A DNA stretch of 50,083 nucleotides, taken from contig JANMFM010000121.1 in NCBI GenBank assembly GCA_031374125.1, forward strand, positions 1 to 50,083, read 5' to 3'. Under the pieces are notes generated by a model that searched no databases, was not told the origin of the DNA, and worked only from the letters and a program-made list of their open reading frames with translations. Shown one piece after another: positions 18,818 to 47,373 of this stretch; within the stretch, counting starts at the first letter, position 1, and every line of letters begins with the position of its first letter. The DNA comes from Bdellovibrionales bacterium (GTDB lineage Bacteria > Bdellovibrionota > Bdellovibrionia > Bdellovibrionales > JAEYZS01). A program made the position numbers and the translations under genes.

Positions 18818-19456
18818 ATGGACGTACAATGGAGAATCAGAGATCATTTTCCAAACTTAAGCGACGATGTTCTGAGCACGCTAAGACTTTTTCATATTGA
18901 GCTTATGAGATTCAATCAGACACTAAGCCTGATCTCTACGTTCACAGAAAAGAACGCGGATCTGCTTCATTTTTATGATATTATCAAAGCAAGTGAGTTT
19001 ATTAAAAAGGATAACGTAGAAATAAAAGAAATTTATAACTACAGCTCTGGAAACGGACTCGCGGGTATCATTTTTTCAATTCTTAATCCAACAGTAAAAG
19101 TAAACGTCATAGTTGAAGATCATAGGAAAATAGAGTTCGTTACACATATAGTTGCTAGAGCCCAACTATCGAATGTTCAGATTATGAATCTTAAGCCGGA
19201 GAATCTCTCAATTAAAGGGCCATCTGTAAATATAACTAGAGATTTCTCTAATCTCGCTCGAACATTGCTTTTAGGTAATAAAATTCTTTCTGCAGGAGCT
19301 ACGATATATTCTTTAAAGGGAGCAGATTGGTTTAAAGAATTAACTGCCTTGCCGTCGCAAATAAGTTCCACGTGGAACAATGACATGGCTTTTGAATACG
19401 AGCTTCCAGAGTCTCTAGGGTCAAAAGTAGTTATAAAATCAGTAAAAACATCTTAA
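18818..19456 (+). CDS. rsmG: 16S rRNA (guanine527-N7)-methyltransferase RsmG (GidB), divergent
   Basis: Conserved position after mnmG, and the size is right. The SAM-binding loop is divergent (YSSGNGLAG instead of the usual D.GSGAGFPG). Confidence 0.7.
   Translation: MDVQWRIRDHFPNLSDDVLSTLRLFHIELMRFNQTLSLISTFTEKNADLLHFYDIIKASEFIKKDNVEIKEIYNYSSGNGLAGIIFSILNPTVKVNVIVEDHRKIEFVTHIVARAQLSNVQIMNLKPENLSIKGPSVNITRDFSNLARTLLLGNKILSAGATIYSLKGADWFKELTALPSQISSTWNNDMAFEYELPESLGSKVVIKSVKTS
19364..19379. promoter_or_regulatory. parS-like site (one mismatch) inside the rsmG 3' end
   Basis: aGTTCCACGTGGAACA compared with the palindromic parS consensus TGTTNCACGTGNAACA. The inner 14 bp are a perfect palindrome. 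Confidence 0.65.
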
Positions 19457-19953
19457 TGATGTCCCCCGCCCTCTTTCTTTTCTACTTTTTTAGGTATTTT
19501 CTTACTAGCCAAACCACGCGACCATTGTTTTGAAGTTGTTGCCATCTTTTTTTGGGTTTCGTATTTTTCTTTTATTCCTGTTGGCGGCCAATCTTTGTCT
19601 TTTCCTGCTTTAAAATATTCTAGATATTGTTTTCTTGCATAGATTTGTCTGCTTTCTGCAGAGATCATATGATATTCCATCATTTGTTCTAGTTTTTTTA
19701 TTTCATTTTTTATTCTGTATATATCTTCTCTGGTTAATTTTTTTTGGTAATCGCTATCTACCAATTCCAAATAAGTTTCTTGAAGACCTTTAAGCTCTTT
19801 TGTCTTTGCATCGATTTCTTTTTTCACTCTAGATTCTTCGCTTTTCATATCTTGATAAACGGGATCTCTTAGCTCTGGAGTTTTATCAAGATTATCGCAT
19901 CCCGCTAAAAATAAAAATATAAACAACATATAGTAAAAATTTCTTGTTCTCAT
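19453..19953 (-). CDS. Coiled-coil lipoprotein, unknown function
   Basis: Signal peptide plus lipobox FLAG-C (MLFIFLFLAGCDN). The remainder is charged and helical. Its stop overlaps the rsmG stop (shared TTAA). Confidence 0.6.
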   Translation of the reverse strand: MRTRNFYYMLFIFLFLAGCDNLDKTPELRDPVYQDMKSEESRVKKEIDAKTKELKGLQETYLELVDSDYQKKLTREDIYRIKNEIKKLEQMMEYHMISAESRQIYARKQYLEYFKAGKDKDWPPTGIKEKYETQKKMATTSKQWSRGLASKKIPKKVEKKEGGGHH

Positions 19954-43341: not shown

Positions 43342-43349
43342 TTAAAAAG

Positions 43350-43374
43350 AAGACCGTGCTAAAGCAGGTCTTTA
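43350..43374 (+). terminator. Weak hairpin after nuoN (possible terminator)
   Basis: AAGACC (43350-43355) pairs with GGTCTT (43367-43372), with an inner 3-bp extension, followed by only TTT. This is weak. Confidence 0.3.
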
Positions 43375-43465
43375 GCCATGTAAAATTTTCATTATAATGA
43401 ATGATATAAAAGTCTCATTTTAAGATTTTATACGTAAGCACATGAAACTACTAACTTATAATTTT

Positions 43466-43533
43466 ATATCATATGATATCAATATTTTATAAATATCATA
43501 TGATATCAATTATAGGTTGATATCATATGATAT
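43466..43533. promoter_or_regulatory. Three phased palindromic operator-like sites upstream of the HipA-family kinase gene
   Basis: The identical perfect 14-bp palindrome ATATCATATGATAT occurs at 43466-43479, 43493-43506 and 43520-43533, spaced exactly 27 bp centre to centre. The last copy ends 3 nt before the ATG at 43537. Confidence 0.7.
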
Positions 43534-43536
43534 TAA

Positions 43537-44457
43537 ATGCAAGATATGCTTATGTTATGTTTGAGATGTAAGCTAGAGATCAGTAAAGAATCACATAGAT
43601 ATGGATTACACCCTAAATGTTTTGTGGCGTGGTTCAAGGTGGATGCATATACAGATTTCTTAAGTTTAACTCAGCGATCCGCTCAAAGCTCATCTCAAAA
43701 AAATCCAAATTATTCTCCCAACAACACATCTTTTTATCATGGAAAATTCAAGAAATATTCTGCTGATCTTGGAACGGATAATTACATATTAAAAATGCGC
43801 ATGGAAAAAGAAGGCCCCGAGCTACCGGAAGTAGAATATTTGTGCAATCAAATTGGAAGTCTGGCTGGCTTACCTGTTGCGGATCATTTTTATATTAATT
43901 TTTATTCAGAGTTAGTGTTTGTCACAAAAGTTTTTATAAAAAAAGGAAGCGCAACCGCCAATCTAGATCCTATACACAAATATCGCCCTGACGATAAACA
44001 TGACTGCGAAACATTAGCGAAGACAATCGAAGAAACAACAAAGCGCCCTTACGATGTGGATGTCTTTTACAGCACCGTACTTTTTGATGCACTGATCGGC
44101 AATAATGACCGCCACGGAGGAAATCTCGCATTTATTGTTACTCCATCGAAGACCGTGCTTTCTCCCATTTATGACAATGTCTCCAATCTTGGATTGTTTG
44201 CAGGGCCTATACTCAATGCAGATTTTCATCCAACAGGTCGCATAGCAACCTTAGAAACTAAAGAGCCTTCAATGAAAGATTACGTCAAAGAGTTAAAGCG
44301 CTTGGGGCAGGGTAGTTTAGTGGAAGAATTTGCAAATAAAGTAAAAGTTCCTAAAATTGAAGAACTCATCGAAAACAGCTACTGCACGCCCCTGATGAAA
44401 GCGGCAATGAAACGTTTGGTTTTAAAAAGACATAAGGAACTCGCAGATGGCCTATAA
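43537..44457 (+). CDS. HipA-family Ser/Thr kinase toxin, core kinase only (HipT-like), with an N-terminal CxxC...HxxC motif
   Basis: HipA_C-type catalytic motif FDALIGNNDRHGGNLAFI, followed by SPIYDNVS (Mg-binding Asp). At 306 aa it lacks the roughly 100-aa HipA N-subdomain. The N-terminus is C8-L-R-C11 ... H25-P-K-C28. Confidence 0.75.
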   Translation: MQDMLMLCLRCKLEISKESHRYGLHPKCFVAWFKVDAYTDFLSLTQRSAQSSSQKNPNYSPNNTSFYHGKFKKYSADLGTDNYILKMRMEKEGPELPEVEYLCNQIGSLAGLPVADHFYINFYSELVFVTKVFIKKGSATANLDPIHKYRPDDKHDCETLAKTIEETTKRPYDVDVFYSTVLFDALIGNNDRHGGNLAFIVTPSKTVLSPIYDNVSNLGLFAGPILNADFHPTGRIATLETKEPSMKDYVKELKRLGQGSLVEEFANKVKVPKIEELIENSYCTPLMKAAMKRLVLKRHKELADGL

Positions 44458-45103
44458 AACTGATTTCAATAACATTGATAAAAATCATCTTCATGTGTTT
44501 GCTGAAAGTCGTAAGAGAAGAATTTTTGTAGGAACTTTGAAGTGGGACGATCTCAAGTCTCAGTTCGAGTTTAAGTATGATTCCAAATATGCTCGTTCGA
44601 AAAAGGCAATCCCTATAGGTAAGGAATTAGATTTATTTAAAAAGACAAATATTTCTAAAAACCTTTTCCCATCATTTGCAGATAGAATTCCAGATCAAGA
44701 TAATCCTGCCTATGAAGACTATTGTTTGGCTCAAGGTATTTCTCTTGAAGAAAAAAACCCCATAATATTATTGGTCTCCATTGGAAGAAAGGGACCTTCT
44801 TCTTTTATATTTGAACCAATTGTTAATAATGAATTTTCCACTTCTGATTTAAAAGCATTTCGAGAGCAATTGGATATTTCCATTCAGGATGTTGCTCTTG
44901 CCTTTGATATGAACTGGCCAACATTACAAAGATTAGAGGCTGGAAAAAAGGTGGAGATGGGAACTCTAAGACGTCTTCAAATTTATTTACAATTTCCGCA
45001 GGTCGCGCTTTGGCAATTATCGTTATCTATTGGGAAATTGCATTCCAATACTTTCAATAGACTATGGCAACATTTTGAAGGCGAAAAGCGTAAGAAAAAA
45101 TAA
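44447..45103 (+). CDS. Fusion of a HipA N-terminal-subdomain-like (HipS-like) domain with a C-terminal XRE-type HTH domain; putative antitoxin/regulator
   Basis: The N-terminal part (VGTLKWDD....FEFKYDSKY.....IPIG..L.........LFPSFADRIPD...........LLVSIGRKGPSSFIFEP) parallels the E. coli HipA N-subdomain pattern (VGELT....TFKY...W....ARPLSLSLPL......FNFFDNLLPD......LLSEIGRDSVGAVTLIP). The C-terminal part LKAFREQLDISIQDVALAFDMNWPTLQRLEAGKK is a classic XRE HTH. The ATG overlaps the kinase stop by 11 nt. Confidence 0.7.
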   Translation: MAYKTDFNNIDKNHLHVFAESRKRRIFVGTLKWDDLKSQFEFKYDSKYARSKKAIPIGKELDLFKKTNISKNLFPSFADRIPDQDNPAYEDYCLAQGISLEEKNPIILLVSIGRKGPSSFIFEPIVNNEFSTSDLKAFREQLDISIQDVALAFDMNWPTLQRLEAGKKVEMGTLRRLQIYLQFPQVALWQLSLSIGKLHSNTFNRLWQHFEGEKRKKK

Positions 45104-45216
45104 TCTTCGTAAGCATTCTTTGGTTCAGTTTTTAATAGGCTTTAAATGCCATTTAACCCAAAATACCCCTATTTTAGGACTTAAAAAATTAAAAATTATA
45201 AGCTACACTAGCATTT

Positions 45217-46094
45217 ATGAAACGTAACGCCCAAAAACATTTAAGAGAATGGTTAAATAGAGCCAATCGCATGCCTCTCATTATCAGGGGCGCTAGGCAA
45301 GTTGGCAAATGAACGCTGGTTAGGCTTTTTTGCGAAGAGGAAGGACTAAATCTTTTAGAATTAAATATTGAGCGTGGAAAGTTAAAGTCAGTAGAAAAAG
45401 ACAACGTGAGTTTATCAGAAGTTCTTGATGAAATTCAGCTCAAAACAAAGAAAAAAATTGAATCGGAAACAATTATTTTTTTGGAGGATATTCAAGAGCA
45501 GCCAAAGCTATTAAAATTTTTAATTTAGATTTTTCAAATGCCGTATGTTCTTTGGCCCAAGAAGAGTATCGCAAATACATCTATATTGGCGGTATGCCCC
45601 AGGCGGTGAAAAATTACGTAGAAGAAAAAAGTCTAGCGAACGTAAGGGCAGTACAAGAGCAAATTATTCAAACATATATTGCTGATTTTCCAAAATACAA
45701 TTCAAAAATAAATTTTGACAGAGCTCAAAGAATTTTTGCAGCTACAATTACTCAGCTTGGTAAAAAATTAATTTATCAAAGATTCGATGCTGAATCAAAA
45801 TCAAGAGAGATAAGAAAAGTCATAGAATTATTAATTGATGCTAGAGTTATTATTCCTTGTACTCATACTAATGGAAATACGATTCCTCTCGCAGGTGAAA
45901 GCGATACTACAGTGCAAAAACTTTACTTCTTAGATGTTGGACTTTCAAACAGTCTTATGAAGTTAGACTTTGAAGCAATAAATAATGAATTCGAACATAA
46001 TTTTAATACAAAATTAATTTCTGGAAAATTATTAAACTTGTCGATCTGGGCTGTAGAGGCTTTGTTTGAGAGCGTTTCCAAGTTTCGAAAATAA
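45217..46094 (+). pseudogene. Decayed AAA+ ATPase (AAA_14 / DUF4143 family) gene
   Basis: The N-terminal reading MKRNAQKHLREWLNRANRMPLIIRGARQVGK is interrupted by an in-frame TGA (45310-45312) exactly where the Walker A Ser/Thr belongs. The frame then continues TLVRLF...IIFLEDIQEQPKLLKFL to a TAG at 45526-45528. The C-terminal DUF4143-like part (YIGGMPQAV...) resumes at 45552 in another frame, and roughly 100 or more residues of the family appear to be missing. Confidence 0.7.
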
Positions 46095-46185
46095 AAAAGG
46101 CAAAAGAAATCTACATAATTCAAATAACATATTTACCTAATTTAGACCTAAACTTACCTAAATTAGGTAAATATCAAGATTAAAG

Positions 46186-47373
46186 TCAAATATCATAGCG
46201 CCTTAAGACTCTTAAGGCGCTTTTGAATCCGATCTTTACGATTCTTTCTAGAATCTCTTTATTGAGAGAAAAGTGATCCACGAAAAACATCTCGTAGTCT
46301 TGAGGATTTGGATGAATATACAGTGTATCCACATCTTTTTTCACGTTCGTTCTTTTCTCTACAATATCTAAAATCTTTTGTCGGTGTTCATCAGGCAGAT
46401 TCGCCTCTTTGAAATAACCATCGATGGCTTTGTAGACTGCCTTCAGGCTATCTTGATATTCCATGTTTTTAAGAATTTTTTGCTCCACTAATTGATAGAG
46501 CGCTTGGTTCAATATTAGAGGAATACCGTATTCATGTAGGCTCCCCATCTTTTCATTATAGTTATAGGGTTGCATAGAATAACTGGCGATCACGAGGTCT
46601 GCGCCATTGTCTGAGGCAACGTGTGTGGAAAGAGTATCTCTAATTTCTCCATCAAAAAAATAAACAGTTTCGTTCTTATCGTTTTTTATTCCGTATGGAC
46701 AATAAACTGGAGGCAGAGACATCGAAGCTGCTGCTGCCTCACTGATAGAGCTTGAATTTATATTCATGATTTTGTCATCGTGGCTGCTAGCTTCGTGGGC
46801 TCCGAAGACAGCTTTGCGCGAACTATTGAGAGCTGTGGCAACGATGAATAGGTTGCTAGCGAGTTCTTTAAAATCATTTGTCGGCAGAACGTGATTTCTT
46901 AAGTATTTTTCTAAACCGCGCGTAGAAAATAATCCATTCAATTTAAATCCATTTTTTAGGAAAGATTCAAATCCGCCCGTCACTAAAGATTTAGTTCTAA
47001 GCTTTGTAGGGATTGCTCTTAAAAATCCTGGAGAATTCAACGCAAAGATATCCCAATAGGTGAGGGGCTTTAGTTTGGGATTTGTTTGAGATATTTTTTT
47101 GATCCCCATTTCAAAGGCTATAATTAAATCTTCTACGGTATACCCTGCTGCAAGAAAGGTACTGATCATTGCTCCGGCACTAGAGCCCACATAAGTATTA
47201 ATTGATAGAGGTTCGGGATTTACGTCATTGTCGGGAAAGTCCTTTTTTAATCCTCCACGGAATTTAAAACCTTTTTCCTCGAGCGCTAGACATACGCCAA
47301 TATGAAAGGCGGCAGCTTTAATGCCACCACCACTTAAAACAAGGGCCACAGATTTCTTGTTTTTGAAACGCAT
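46186..47373 (-). CDS. Patatin-like phospholipase
   Basis: Oxyanion-hole motif LVLSGGGIKAAAFHIG, nucleophile elbow GSSAG (GxSxG), and catalytic Asp motif FFDGEIRD (DG[AE]). Confidence 0.88.
   Translation of the reverse strand: MRFKNKKSVALVLSGGGIKAAAFHIGVCLALEEKGFKFRGGLKKDFPDNDVNPEPLSINTYVGSSAGAMISTFLAAGYTVEDLIIAFEMGIKKISQTNPKLKPLTYWDIFALNSPGFLRAIPTKLRTKSLVTGGFESFLKNGFKLNGLFSTRGLEKYLRNHVLPTNDFKELASNLFIVATALNSSRKAVFGAHEASSHDDKIMNINSSSISEAAAASMSLPPVYCPYGIKNDKNETVYFFDGEIRDTLSTHVASDNGADLVIASYSMQPYNYNEKMGSLHEYGIPLILNQALYQLVEQKILKNMEYQDSLKAVYKAIDGYFKEANLPDEHRQKILDIVEKRTNVKKDVDTLYIHPNPQDYEMFFVDHFSLNKEILERIVKIGFKSALRVLRRYDI
46198..46224 (+). terminator. Plus-strand intrinsic terminator embedded in the 3' end of the convergent patatin gene
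   Basis: Perfect 10-bp stem GCGCCTTAAG/CTTAAGGCGC with a 3-nt loop, followed by TTTT (46221-46224). Confidence 0.5.

Follow-up and report, generated by a model that had tools for sequence, protein, structure and literature searches.

The stretch of DNA considered here, referred to as the window, comprises 50,083 nucleotides (nt) of a Bdellovibrionales bacterium (contig JANMFM010000121.1) and carries on its + strand a pair of open reading frames (ORFs), located at 43537-44457 (306 amino acids, aa) and 44447-45103 (218 aa). The first encodes a short HipA-family Ser/Thr kinase, a putative toxin, and the second a predicted fusion of a HipS-like domain with an XRE-type helix-turn-helix (HTH) domain, a putative antitoxin and repressor. 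According to the ORF coordinates, the kinase stop and the fusion-gene start overlap by 11 nt (44447-44457, + strand), as had been reported in an initial annotation of this DNA. The pair is an intact two-gene module in which the kinase gene comes first and the HipS-HTH fusion gene second. Databases name both proteins only generically.

The kinase was identified from its HipA_C match, its AlphaFold2 (AF2) model and its homologs. Pfam profile HipA_C (PF07804) matched aa 76-219 with 65.7 bits, the gathering cut-off being 30.5 (E 6.1e-18). No Pfam match to Couple_hipA was obtained in this protein, which is why it was considered to be devoid of HipA N-subdomain 1. The initial annotation had described a 306-aa ORF bearing the HipA catalytic signature and lacking the N-subdomain, and both motifs that it quoted were indeed present. 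Its coordinates for the 306-aa ORF were correct as well, but its start is not the likely biological one: nearly all homologs, as well as the called gene in a relative with a 97 % identical kinase, begin at the sixth codon (M6), so that the true start is probably located at 43552, yielding a protein of 301 aa.

The catalytic motif LIGNNDRHGGNL (aa 186-197; 44092-44127, + strand), which includes D191, H193 and N196, was invariant and aligned with GNeDmHlkN of the Legionella pneumophila kinase HipT(Lp). The Mg-binding motif SPIYDNVS (aa 209-216; 44161-44184, + strand), which includes D213, displayed an invariant Y-D-N-x-S pattern and aligned with spaYD of HipT(Lp). Residues D191, H193, N196 and D213 were invariant in alignments of up to 120 relatives, and the kinase is predicted to be active. 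Region NTSFYHGKFKKYSA (43723-43764, + strand), conserved in two alignments (A2 and A4), appears to be the Gly-rich, ATP-binding loop, judging from its position relative to the HipA and HipT motifs. Invariant loop residues were N63, S65, F66, G69, K70, F71, K73, Y74, S75 and A76 in alignment A2, and S, F, G, F, K, Y, S and A in alignment A4. This loop had been called atypical in the initial annotation; NTSF[FY]HGKFKKYSA proved instead to be an invariant signature of the clade and not a defect. By analogy with the kinases reviewed by Gerdes et al. (2021; PMC8262856), T64 and S65 beside the loop are candidate autophosphorylation sites.

The N-terminal extremity of the kinase displayed a CxxC-x13-HxxC mini-domain, a putative zinc site (43558-43620, + strand; C8, C11, H25 and C28). 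In alignments A2 and A4, the histidine and the last cysteine were invariant and the first two cysteines were at least 90 % conserved. The CxxC...HxxC motif, already noticed in the initial annotation, is real: it was found in 69 out of 69 full-length kinases of related loci, including partner kinases of only 32-47 % identity. In the AF2 model, the region reached predicted local distance difference test (pLDDT) values of 91-96, with the histidine and the last cysteine at the start of a helix. The CCHC mini-domain is probably zinc-binding and, being conserved, it marks a clade of kinases. The whole kinase was modelled with a pLDDT of 90.2 and a predicted template modelling score of 0.89. Foldseek comparison of this model with the PDB retrieved HipT(Lp) as the best match, followed by CtkA, HipA and the Escherichia coli HipT (E 1e-12 to 1e-8), and a PDB profile search by sequence also returned HipT(Lp) first (E 2.5e-16). 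Kinase homologs amounted to 432 clusters. The input alignments for AF2 contained 117-120 sequences, and the kinase and the fusion protein were modelled singly.

The 218-aa fusion protein (44447-45103, + strand) was delineated from its homologs and its AF2 model (pLDDT 89.1). Its HipS-like domain (aa 1-128; 44447-44830, + strand) matched Couple_hipA (PF13657) over aa 27-117 with 33.4 bits (cut-off 22.5). Foldseek related the predicted fold of this domain to HipS(Lp) (7vkb_B and 8ezr_A; TM-score 0.85-0.87, root-mean-square deviation ~2 Å) and then to the HipA N-subdomain. When the PDB was searched by sequence only, the HipS-like domain retrieved neither HipS nor HipA and gave nothing but spurious densovirus capsid matches (E 0.02); within the PDB, the relationship to HipS(Lp) is therefore apparent solely from fold comparison. 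The XRE-type HTH with its C-terminal helices (aa 130-218; 44834-45100, + strand) was assigned from PDB profile matches (PbsX-family, CylR2 and PezA) and from Foldseek, which retrieved HigA2 and HipB by their HTH domains, and PF01381 is recorded for many homologs. The recognition helix lies at about PTLQRLEAGK (aa 158-167), with T159, L160, Q161, R162 and E164 conserved and a family pattern PTLQRLE.GK. Homologs of the fusion protein amounted to 259 clusters, and the 120 listed aligned near full length with 50-80 % identity. From these profiles and models, a HipS-like domain and an XRE-type HTH are predicted to be combined in one polypeptide. Both halves had been recognised in the initial annotation, the first by its HipA N-subdomain pattern and the second as an XRE-type HTH, and both assignments were upheld, although HTH_3 itself stayed below its cut-off. 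Likewise, the proposal that HipS-like and HipB-like functions are fused and encoded after the kinase agreed with the profiles, the predicted structures and the conserved gene order. The annotation had announced beforehand that its claim would fall if a HipA_C match to the first protein or a Couple_hipA match to the second were missing; both matches exceeded their cut-offs and the claim stands. Three features described below had escaped the annotation, namely the triple palindrome preceding the kinase, a family size in the hundreds and long relatives with an Avs8-like STAND sensor attached to the HipS-HTH head.

The 11-nt overlap suggests translational coupling of the kinase and fusion genes. 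In the closest Bdellovibrionota relatives, the offset displayed by tblastn was identical to this overlap, while more distant relatives had gaps of a few to ~50 nt. A programmed frameshift joining both ORFs was rejected because these distant relatives display short intergenic gaps and no overlap. A decayed module or pseudogene was rejected as well, since both ORFs are intact and every conserved residue is kept.

Three exact copies of the 14-mer palindrome ATATCATATGATAT precede the kinase gene, at 43466-43479, 43493-43506 and 43520-43533, each starting 27 nt after the start of the preceding one. The third copy ends 3 nt before the first kinase ATG and 18 nt before the probable start. These three were the only exact copies in the window (shuffle expectation 0.00), and they were preserved in two relatives whose kinases are 97 % and 75 % identical (loci L081 and L001, respectively) amid diverging intergenic DNA. 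In the 150-nt segments preceding 63 related kinases, half-site TGATAT/ATATCA was counted 141 times, as against 16.1 +/- 4.1 in shuffles (~9-fold). Half-site density was 14.4 per kb in these segments and 0.8 per kb over the remainder of the loci, and the full inverted half-site pair occurred at 2.3 per kb upstream of kinases versus 0.005 per kb elsewhere in the loci. Palindromes of similar style were found upstream in most loci, for instance TGATATCTATAGATATCA or GATACTATATAGTATC, often two of them ~27 nt apart; covariation between operator and recognition helix was judged by eye only. The three copies of ATATCATATGATAT are considered a putative operator and, because of the palindromes, the half-site enrichment and the conserved recognition helix, autorepression by the HTH is the natural reading. 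A 14-nt palindrome repeated three times at 27-nt spacing constitutes a clean and readily testable prediction at the sequence level. A copy with one mismatch (AGATCATATGATAT) was located at 19662-19675, within the span of an ORF on the - strand (19453-19953); it is probably due to chance but could be a second binding site.

A hairpin lies directly after nuoN (43349-43373, + strand; RNA fold -11.9 kcal/mol, z -3.3 versus shuffles). Its T-tract is weak and it was absent from the list produced by the terminator scan. This hairpin may, tentatively, be the terminator of the nuo operon, in which case the module may form its own transcription unit. The promoter and terminator scan gave counts not above those of shuffles, and no stable hairpin was found 3' of the fusion gene.

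The distribution of the fusion gene was established by scanning one genome per GTDB species. It was present in 147 species, and the loci of the best 80 (L001-L080) were analysed. These 80 loci belonged to Bdellovibrionota (27), Legionellales (17), unclassified Gammaproteobacteria (17), unclassified proteobacteria or bacteria (11), Francisellaceae (two), Chlamydiota (two), Elusimicrobia (two), Holosporales (one) and Verrucomicrobia (one). The family thus seemed concentrated in predatory or intracellular lineages, with stray members in Elusimicrobia and Verrucomicrobia. These lineage counts, uncorrected for sampling, suggest horizontal exchange within a shared niche, for instance amoebae. Cultured carriers include Legionella nautarum ATCC 49506 and L. 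nagasakiensis JCM 15315, which makes experiments possible.

Gene order was highly conserved. The kinase was found directly upstream of the fusion gene on the same strand, overlapping it or separated by a few to ~50 nt, in 64 out of 75 evaluable fusion-gene loci. Conversely, a HipS-like ORF directly followed the kinase in all 76 metagenome loci that had enough downstream sequence, out of 80 retrieved via the kinase. The flanks displayed no such constancy. None of the neighbours in the window (nuoM, nuoN and a patatin gene) recurred in L001-L080, and no flanking protein cluster spanned more than four to five of these 80 loci, the largest being composed of antisense ORFs inside the module. In L081, the pair occupies the same nuoN-to-patatin gap, accompanied by a DUF7932 gene (1133 aa) and by three small ORFs; unlike this, the companion inside the gap in the window is a decayed ATPase gene. 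Since no flanking gene is conserved and the companions differ in a relative with a 97 % identical kinase, the pair is an autonomous accessory module moving as a unit.

Loss of the two genes was markedly asymmetric. The fusion gene was full length in 79 out of 80 loci, while the kinase was in fragments in eight and absent in three of the 75 evaluable ones. Loss of the kinase in 11 out of 75 genome loci is to be compared with loss of the partner in none of the 76 metagenome loci (Fisher p = 3e-4). In L043 (5770-6001) and L052 (5630-6001), both closely related to L047 (4640-5906), comparison with the latter uncovered two kinase deletions with different end points. They are independent of each other, and both loci retained the operator palindromes and the fusion gene, forming orphan antitoxin loci. 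In L035 (3248-5993), an insertion of ~1.7 kb interrupts the kinase. Such asymmetric loss fits the pattern predicted for a toxin with its antitoxin, and a toxin-antitoxin relation is proposed because kinase loss is tolerated while a kinase devoid of its partner was not seen. We consider it probable that the module is a self-contained, kinase-first, two-gene toxin-antitoxin system of the Hip type, in which the HipS domain would neutralise the kinase and the HTH would autoregulate the operon.

The same data bear on the alternative of a split HipA. Here, the kinase would depend on the HipS-like domain as a structural subunit for its completion or activation, and the pair would be devoid of toxicity, acting as a signalling kinase tethered to DNA or regulating transcription. 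In favour of this reading, the HipS-like domain is the structural equivalent of HipA N-subdomain 1, which is non-inhibitory in HipA, the kinase was never found without a HipS-like partner, and conservation is high (50-80 % identity across phyla). In a split HipA, however, either gene could decay first, yet only the kinase decays. Moreover, HipS is the antitoxin in both characterised split systems, those of E. coli O127 and L. pneumophila (PMC10627512). With its variable genomic surroundings and patchy occurrence across phyla, the pair also resembles an accessory module, selfish or defensive, more than it does a housekeeping regulator. A split HipA was therefore judged improbable.

Several observations speak against the toxin-antitoxin system favoured here. 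HTH_3 scored 19.3 bits in the fusion protein (aa 135-181), under its cut-off of 23, and other models of Cro/C1-type HTHs also remained just below theirs. No convincing sigma-70 promoter was found on the + strand among the operators in the promoter scan. The fusion protein was unmatched in 72,556 plasmids and 50,697 phage genomes and the kinase was unmatched in IMG/VR viral contigs, leaving carriage by mobile elements without direct support. The two sets behind the asymmetry come from different collections, and assembly errors in metagenome-assembled genomes may mimic some of the kinase fragmentation. Finally, HipT(Lp), the closest solved relative, is itself described as having diverged in function from the system of E. 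coli (PMC10653801).

Starting from the observed domain identities, gene order, operator repeats and their conservation, variable context and asymmetric kinase loss, we infer binding, inhibition, repression, toxicity and target for the toxin-antitoxin module as follows. One autoregulated and translationally coupled transcript would yield both the kinase and the HipS-HTH protein. The HipS-like domain would occupy the kinase where the N-subdomain of HipA itself would be and keep it inactive, as in the HipS/HipT pair, in which HipS neutralises HipT via direct binding near the Gly-rich loop (PMC10627512). The HTH, presumably dimeric, would bind the three ATATCATATGATAT palindromes just upstream of the kinase and repress the operon. 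Upon loss or displacement of the fusion protein, the freed kinase would stop growth, possibly by phosphorylating an essential translation factor, by analogy with HipA and HipT, the targets of which are GltX and TrpS, respectively (Gerdes et al. 2021, PMC8262856).

The lineages in which the family is concentrated also raised the question of a kinase secreted as an effector acting on host or prey cells, with HipS-HTH as its chaperone and regulator. Predatory and intracellular groups are well represented among the best 80 loci (Bdellovibrionota, Legionellales, Francisellaceae, Chlamydiota and Holosporales, with the counts given above), and Lpg2370, the closest solved relative, was first catalogued as a Legionella effector (PMC9758233, PMC9325769). 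In careful assays, however, translocation of HipT(Lp) was not above the negative control (PMC10653801). The carrier taxa use unrelated secretion systems, and neither a signal peptide nor secretion-associated neighbours were found in the inspected gene tables of loci or among the flanking genes that recur. Toxin-antitoxin systems are characterised by tight autoregulation of the operon and by such a pattern of toxin decay, and a secreted effector was regarded as highly improbable.

Ten organisations of Hip kinases were distinguished by Gerdes, Baerentsen & Brodersen (2021; PMC8262856). Kinase genes followed by a HipS-like putative antitoxin are already among them, namely hipIN, in which the HipS-like part is joined to HIRAN, and hipJS, in which HipS stands alone (PMC8262856). 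A toxin-first layout with a split-off N-subdomain is consequently not new, and the caution expressed in the initial annotation concerning novelty was justified. The toxin-first HipS-HTH fusion was not among these ten layouts when the architecture was checked against the survey (PMC8262856). Nor was it described in the searchable literature, subscription-only papers being outside that search, and it is provisionally regarded as undescribed. The window module was set apart from HipI, HipJ and HipN by their descriptions and not by their sequences.

System hipIN (clade XI) is similar in layout. As in the window, a short core kinase without N-subdomain 1 comes first and is followed by a two-domain putative antitoxin with a HipS-like N-terminus and a nucleic-acid-binding C-terminus. 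In PADLOC, hipIN corresponds to PDC-M03; PDC-M03A was matched by the window kinase, and PDC-M03B by the fusion protein over its N-terminal half. These matches were partial and weak (54 bits, covering only profile positions 17-126 of 245). By comparison, a Couple_hipA+HIRAN protein (P0389) matched PDC-M03B over positions 1-242 (E 7e-79) and was among the weakest listed matches of a profile built from the HipS-like domain (E 1e-6). The C-terminus is HIRAN in hipIN and an XRE-type HTH in the window protein, which implies sequence-specific operator binding rather than recognition of DNA ends. The window kinase has in addition the CCHC mini-domain (~45 aa), which appears to be absent from HipI, as the match to PDC-M03A begins only at residue 80 of the protein, aligned with position 32 of the profile. 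Judging from these profile matches, the window module is a probable relative of hipIN with an XRE-type HTH in place of HIRAN and with a kinase that gained a CCHC head.

In system hipBST (E. coli O127:H6; L. pneumophila lpg2368-2370), too, a HipS-like domain is split off and acts on a short kinase, as would be the case in the window, and an HTH protein regulates transcription. Among solved structures, its members HipS(Lp) and HipT(Lp) are those most similar to the window proteins. In contrast, it consists of three genes in the order hipB-hipS-hipT, while the window has two, the kinase followed by a HipS::HTH polypeptide. Identity in the Foldseek alignments was only 23 % to HipT(Lp) and 17 % to HipS(Lp). 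The loop of the E. coli HipT contains two serines (Ser57/Ser59) (PMC10627512) and that of the window clade reads SF[FY]HGKFKK; the CCHC motif further distinguishes the window kinase. With hipJS, the window shares a kinase in first position and a HipS-like protein downstream, but the partner in hipJS is HipS only and two modules alone are given in PMC8262856, whereas the window partner has a conserved fused HTH. With hipBA, it shares the HipA_C fold and the catalytic motifs. The putative HTH repressor of the window and the several palindromic candidate operators upstream resemble those of hipBA, in which HipB autoregulates the operon (PMC8262856). Gene order in hipBA is reversed, HipA is full length while the window kinase is devoid of N-subdomain 1, and the window HTH protein additionally bears a HipS-like domain, through which neutralisation would be expected to proceed rather than in the manner of HipB. 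All parts of the module are known; their combination (kinase first, HipS-repressor fusion, CCHC head and triple palindrome) is absent from the published Hip organisations. It would add an eleventh gene organisation to the catalogue of Hip kinases, one in which the two regulatory proteins of hipBST are merged into one and neutralisation and autoregulation would be physically linked.

Relatives of the HipS-like domain point to phage defence. Its profile was compared with 1.84 billion representative proteins and retrieved 167 relatives, of which 150 were listed. Many were 200-240 aa long, but ~40 of the 150 listed measured 400-1700 aa and bore the HipS-like domain at their very N-terminal end. 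An HTH directly followed this domain in eight out of ten scanned relatives (338 to 1537 aa), beyond which no Pfam match was obtained at E <= 0.001. Compared with PADLOC, the part that follows the HTH matched PD-Lambda-4_A in all four long proteins examined (E 2.8e-67 to 1.4e-29), and it contained a Walker A motif and weak matches to NB-ARC, NACHT and AAA_16. PD-lambda-4 is Avs8, a STAND NTPase reported to sense phage major capsid proteins (bioRxiv 10.64898/2026.01.04.697583). Four loci of long variants (L082:4036-9614, L083:3064-9049, L084:274-2983 and L085:341-2588) encode proteins of 443-1682 aa, in which the HipS-like N-terminal head was kept and the HTH was confirmed in three out of four; the match to PD-Lambda-4_A concerns the C-terminal part of the giant forms. 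In all four loci, a HipA_C kinase of 312-320 aa with the same CCHC motif was found directly upstream. Two other relatives displayed different tails: P0314 (379 aa) consisted of Couple_hipA followed by a HEPN domain, and P0260 (255 aa) of Couple_hipA and an HTH with a weak YopX-like tail.

Judged by domain matches and gene order, the HipS-HTH head of these proteins may be a reusable adaptor through which Hip kinases would be joined to various sensors or regulatory modules. In the long relatives, an NLR-like sensor seems to be paired with a separately encoded kinase effector, a pairing that looks undescribed. Avs proteins usually have a built-in effector domain at the N-terminal head position. 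In the long relatives, this head is a HipS-HTH adaptor beside a separate kinase gene, and their C-terminal 700-1500 aa match PD-Lambda-4_A, a region that the 218-aa window protein does not have. No trans-acting kinase effector for Avs proteins was found reported in the searchable literature, and neither HipA nor HipS is mentioned in the Avs survey (bioRxiv 10.64898/2026.01.04.697583).

For the window pair itself, these relatives bring in the possibility that its main role is abortive-infection phage defence and not addiction or persistence. Infection would remove or displace HipS-HTH, for instance through transcription shut-off or a phage trigger, and the kinase would then stop translation. 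The machinery would be the same as in a toxin-antitoxin system and serve another purpose, so that both may apply, and from its sequence features the module fits either a type II toxin-antitoxin or an abortive-defence type. Since the long relatives carry an Avs8-like sensor, abortive defence becomes more likely for the short form as well. In addition, both window proteins match the PADLOC candidate PDC-M03 (A: 3e-15; B: 2e-10, N-terminal half only), and related loci have the same kinase and a HipS-HTH head extended by the PD-Lambda-4_A-like (Avs8) region. Phage defence has been validated for another HipA-family kinase pair, DS-6/HipAD (PMC13092281), and a role in defence was suggested for hipIN and hipL by Gerdes et al. 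(PMC8262856). Furthermore, the content of the nuoN-patatin gap varies among close relatives, and in L083 the neighbours are a KilA-N gene and a large gene of the helicase/nSTAND3 type. By contrast, the 218-aa protein lacks a sensor domain, no recognisable defence genes flank the module in the window (nuo genes, decayed ATPase and patatin genes), and no defence neighbours recurred across the best 80 loci. A main role in defence was retained as possible, with reservations.

A more speculative extension, which we hold to be rather doubtful, considers the window pair as a minimal member of an undescribed immune family with a kinase effector. In all its members, a HipS-HTH adaptor would keep a CCHC Hip kinase inactive. 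In the long forms, the adaptor would head an Avs8-like sensor and capsid recognition would free or activate the translation-blocking kinase, while the short form would respond to the loss of labile HipS-HTH during infection. If true, toxin-antitoxin kinases would be linked to STAND immunity, which would indicate the purpose of such modules.

In the window, the neighbours of the module are the nuo genes nuoM and nuoN, a patatin gene and an ATPase gene that has decayed. The decayed gene (45219-46094) is of the AAA type with DUF4143. Its N-terminal piece (MKRNAQKHLREWLNRANRMPLIIRGARQVGK) is terminated by a stop codon and later pieces lie in other frames; only ORF 45552-46094 still matched DUF4143 (E 3.9e-10). 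A patatin-like phospholipase gene (46186-47373, - strand; Pfam E 1.4e-18) borders the gap in both the window and L081, and no evidence was found in these two loci to support it as a member of the module. The nuoN-to-patatin gap is a variable spot (43342-46185 in the window; L081:2174-8853). A second association with nuo was encountered in L082 (449-10432), where the kinase and its giant partner are located within a nuo operon, between nuoG-like and nuoI-like genes; these two independent associations may be a coincidence.

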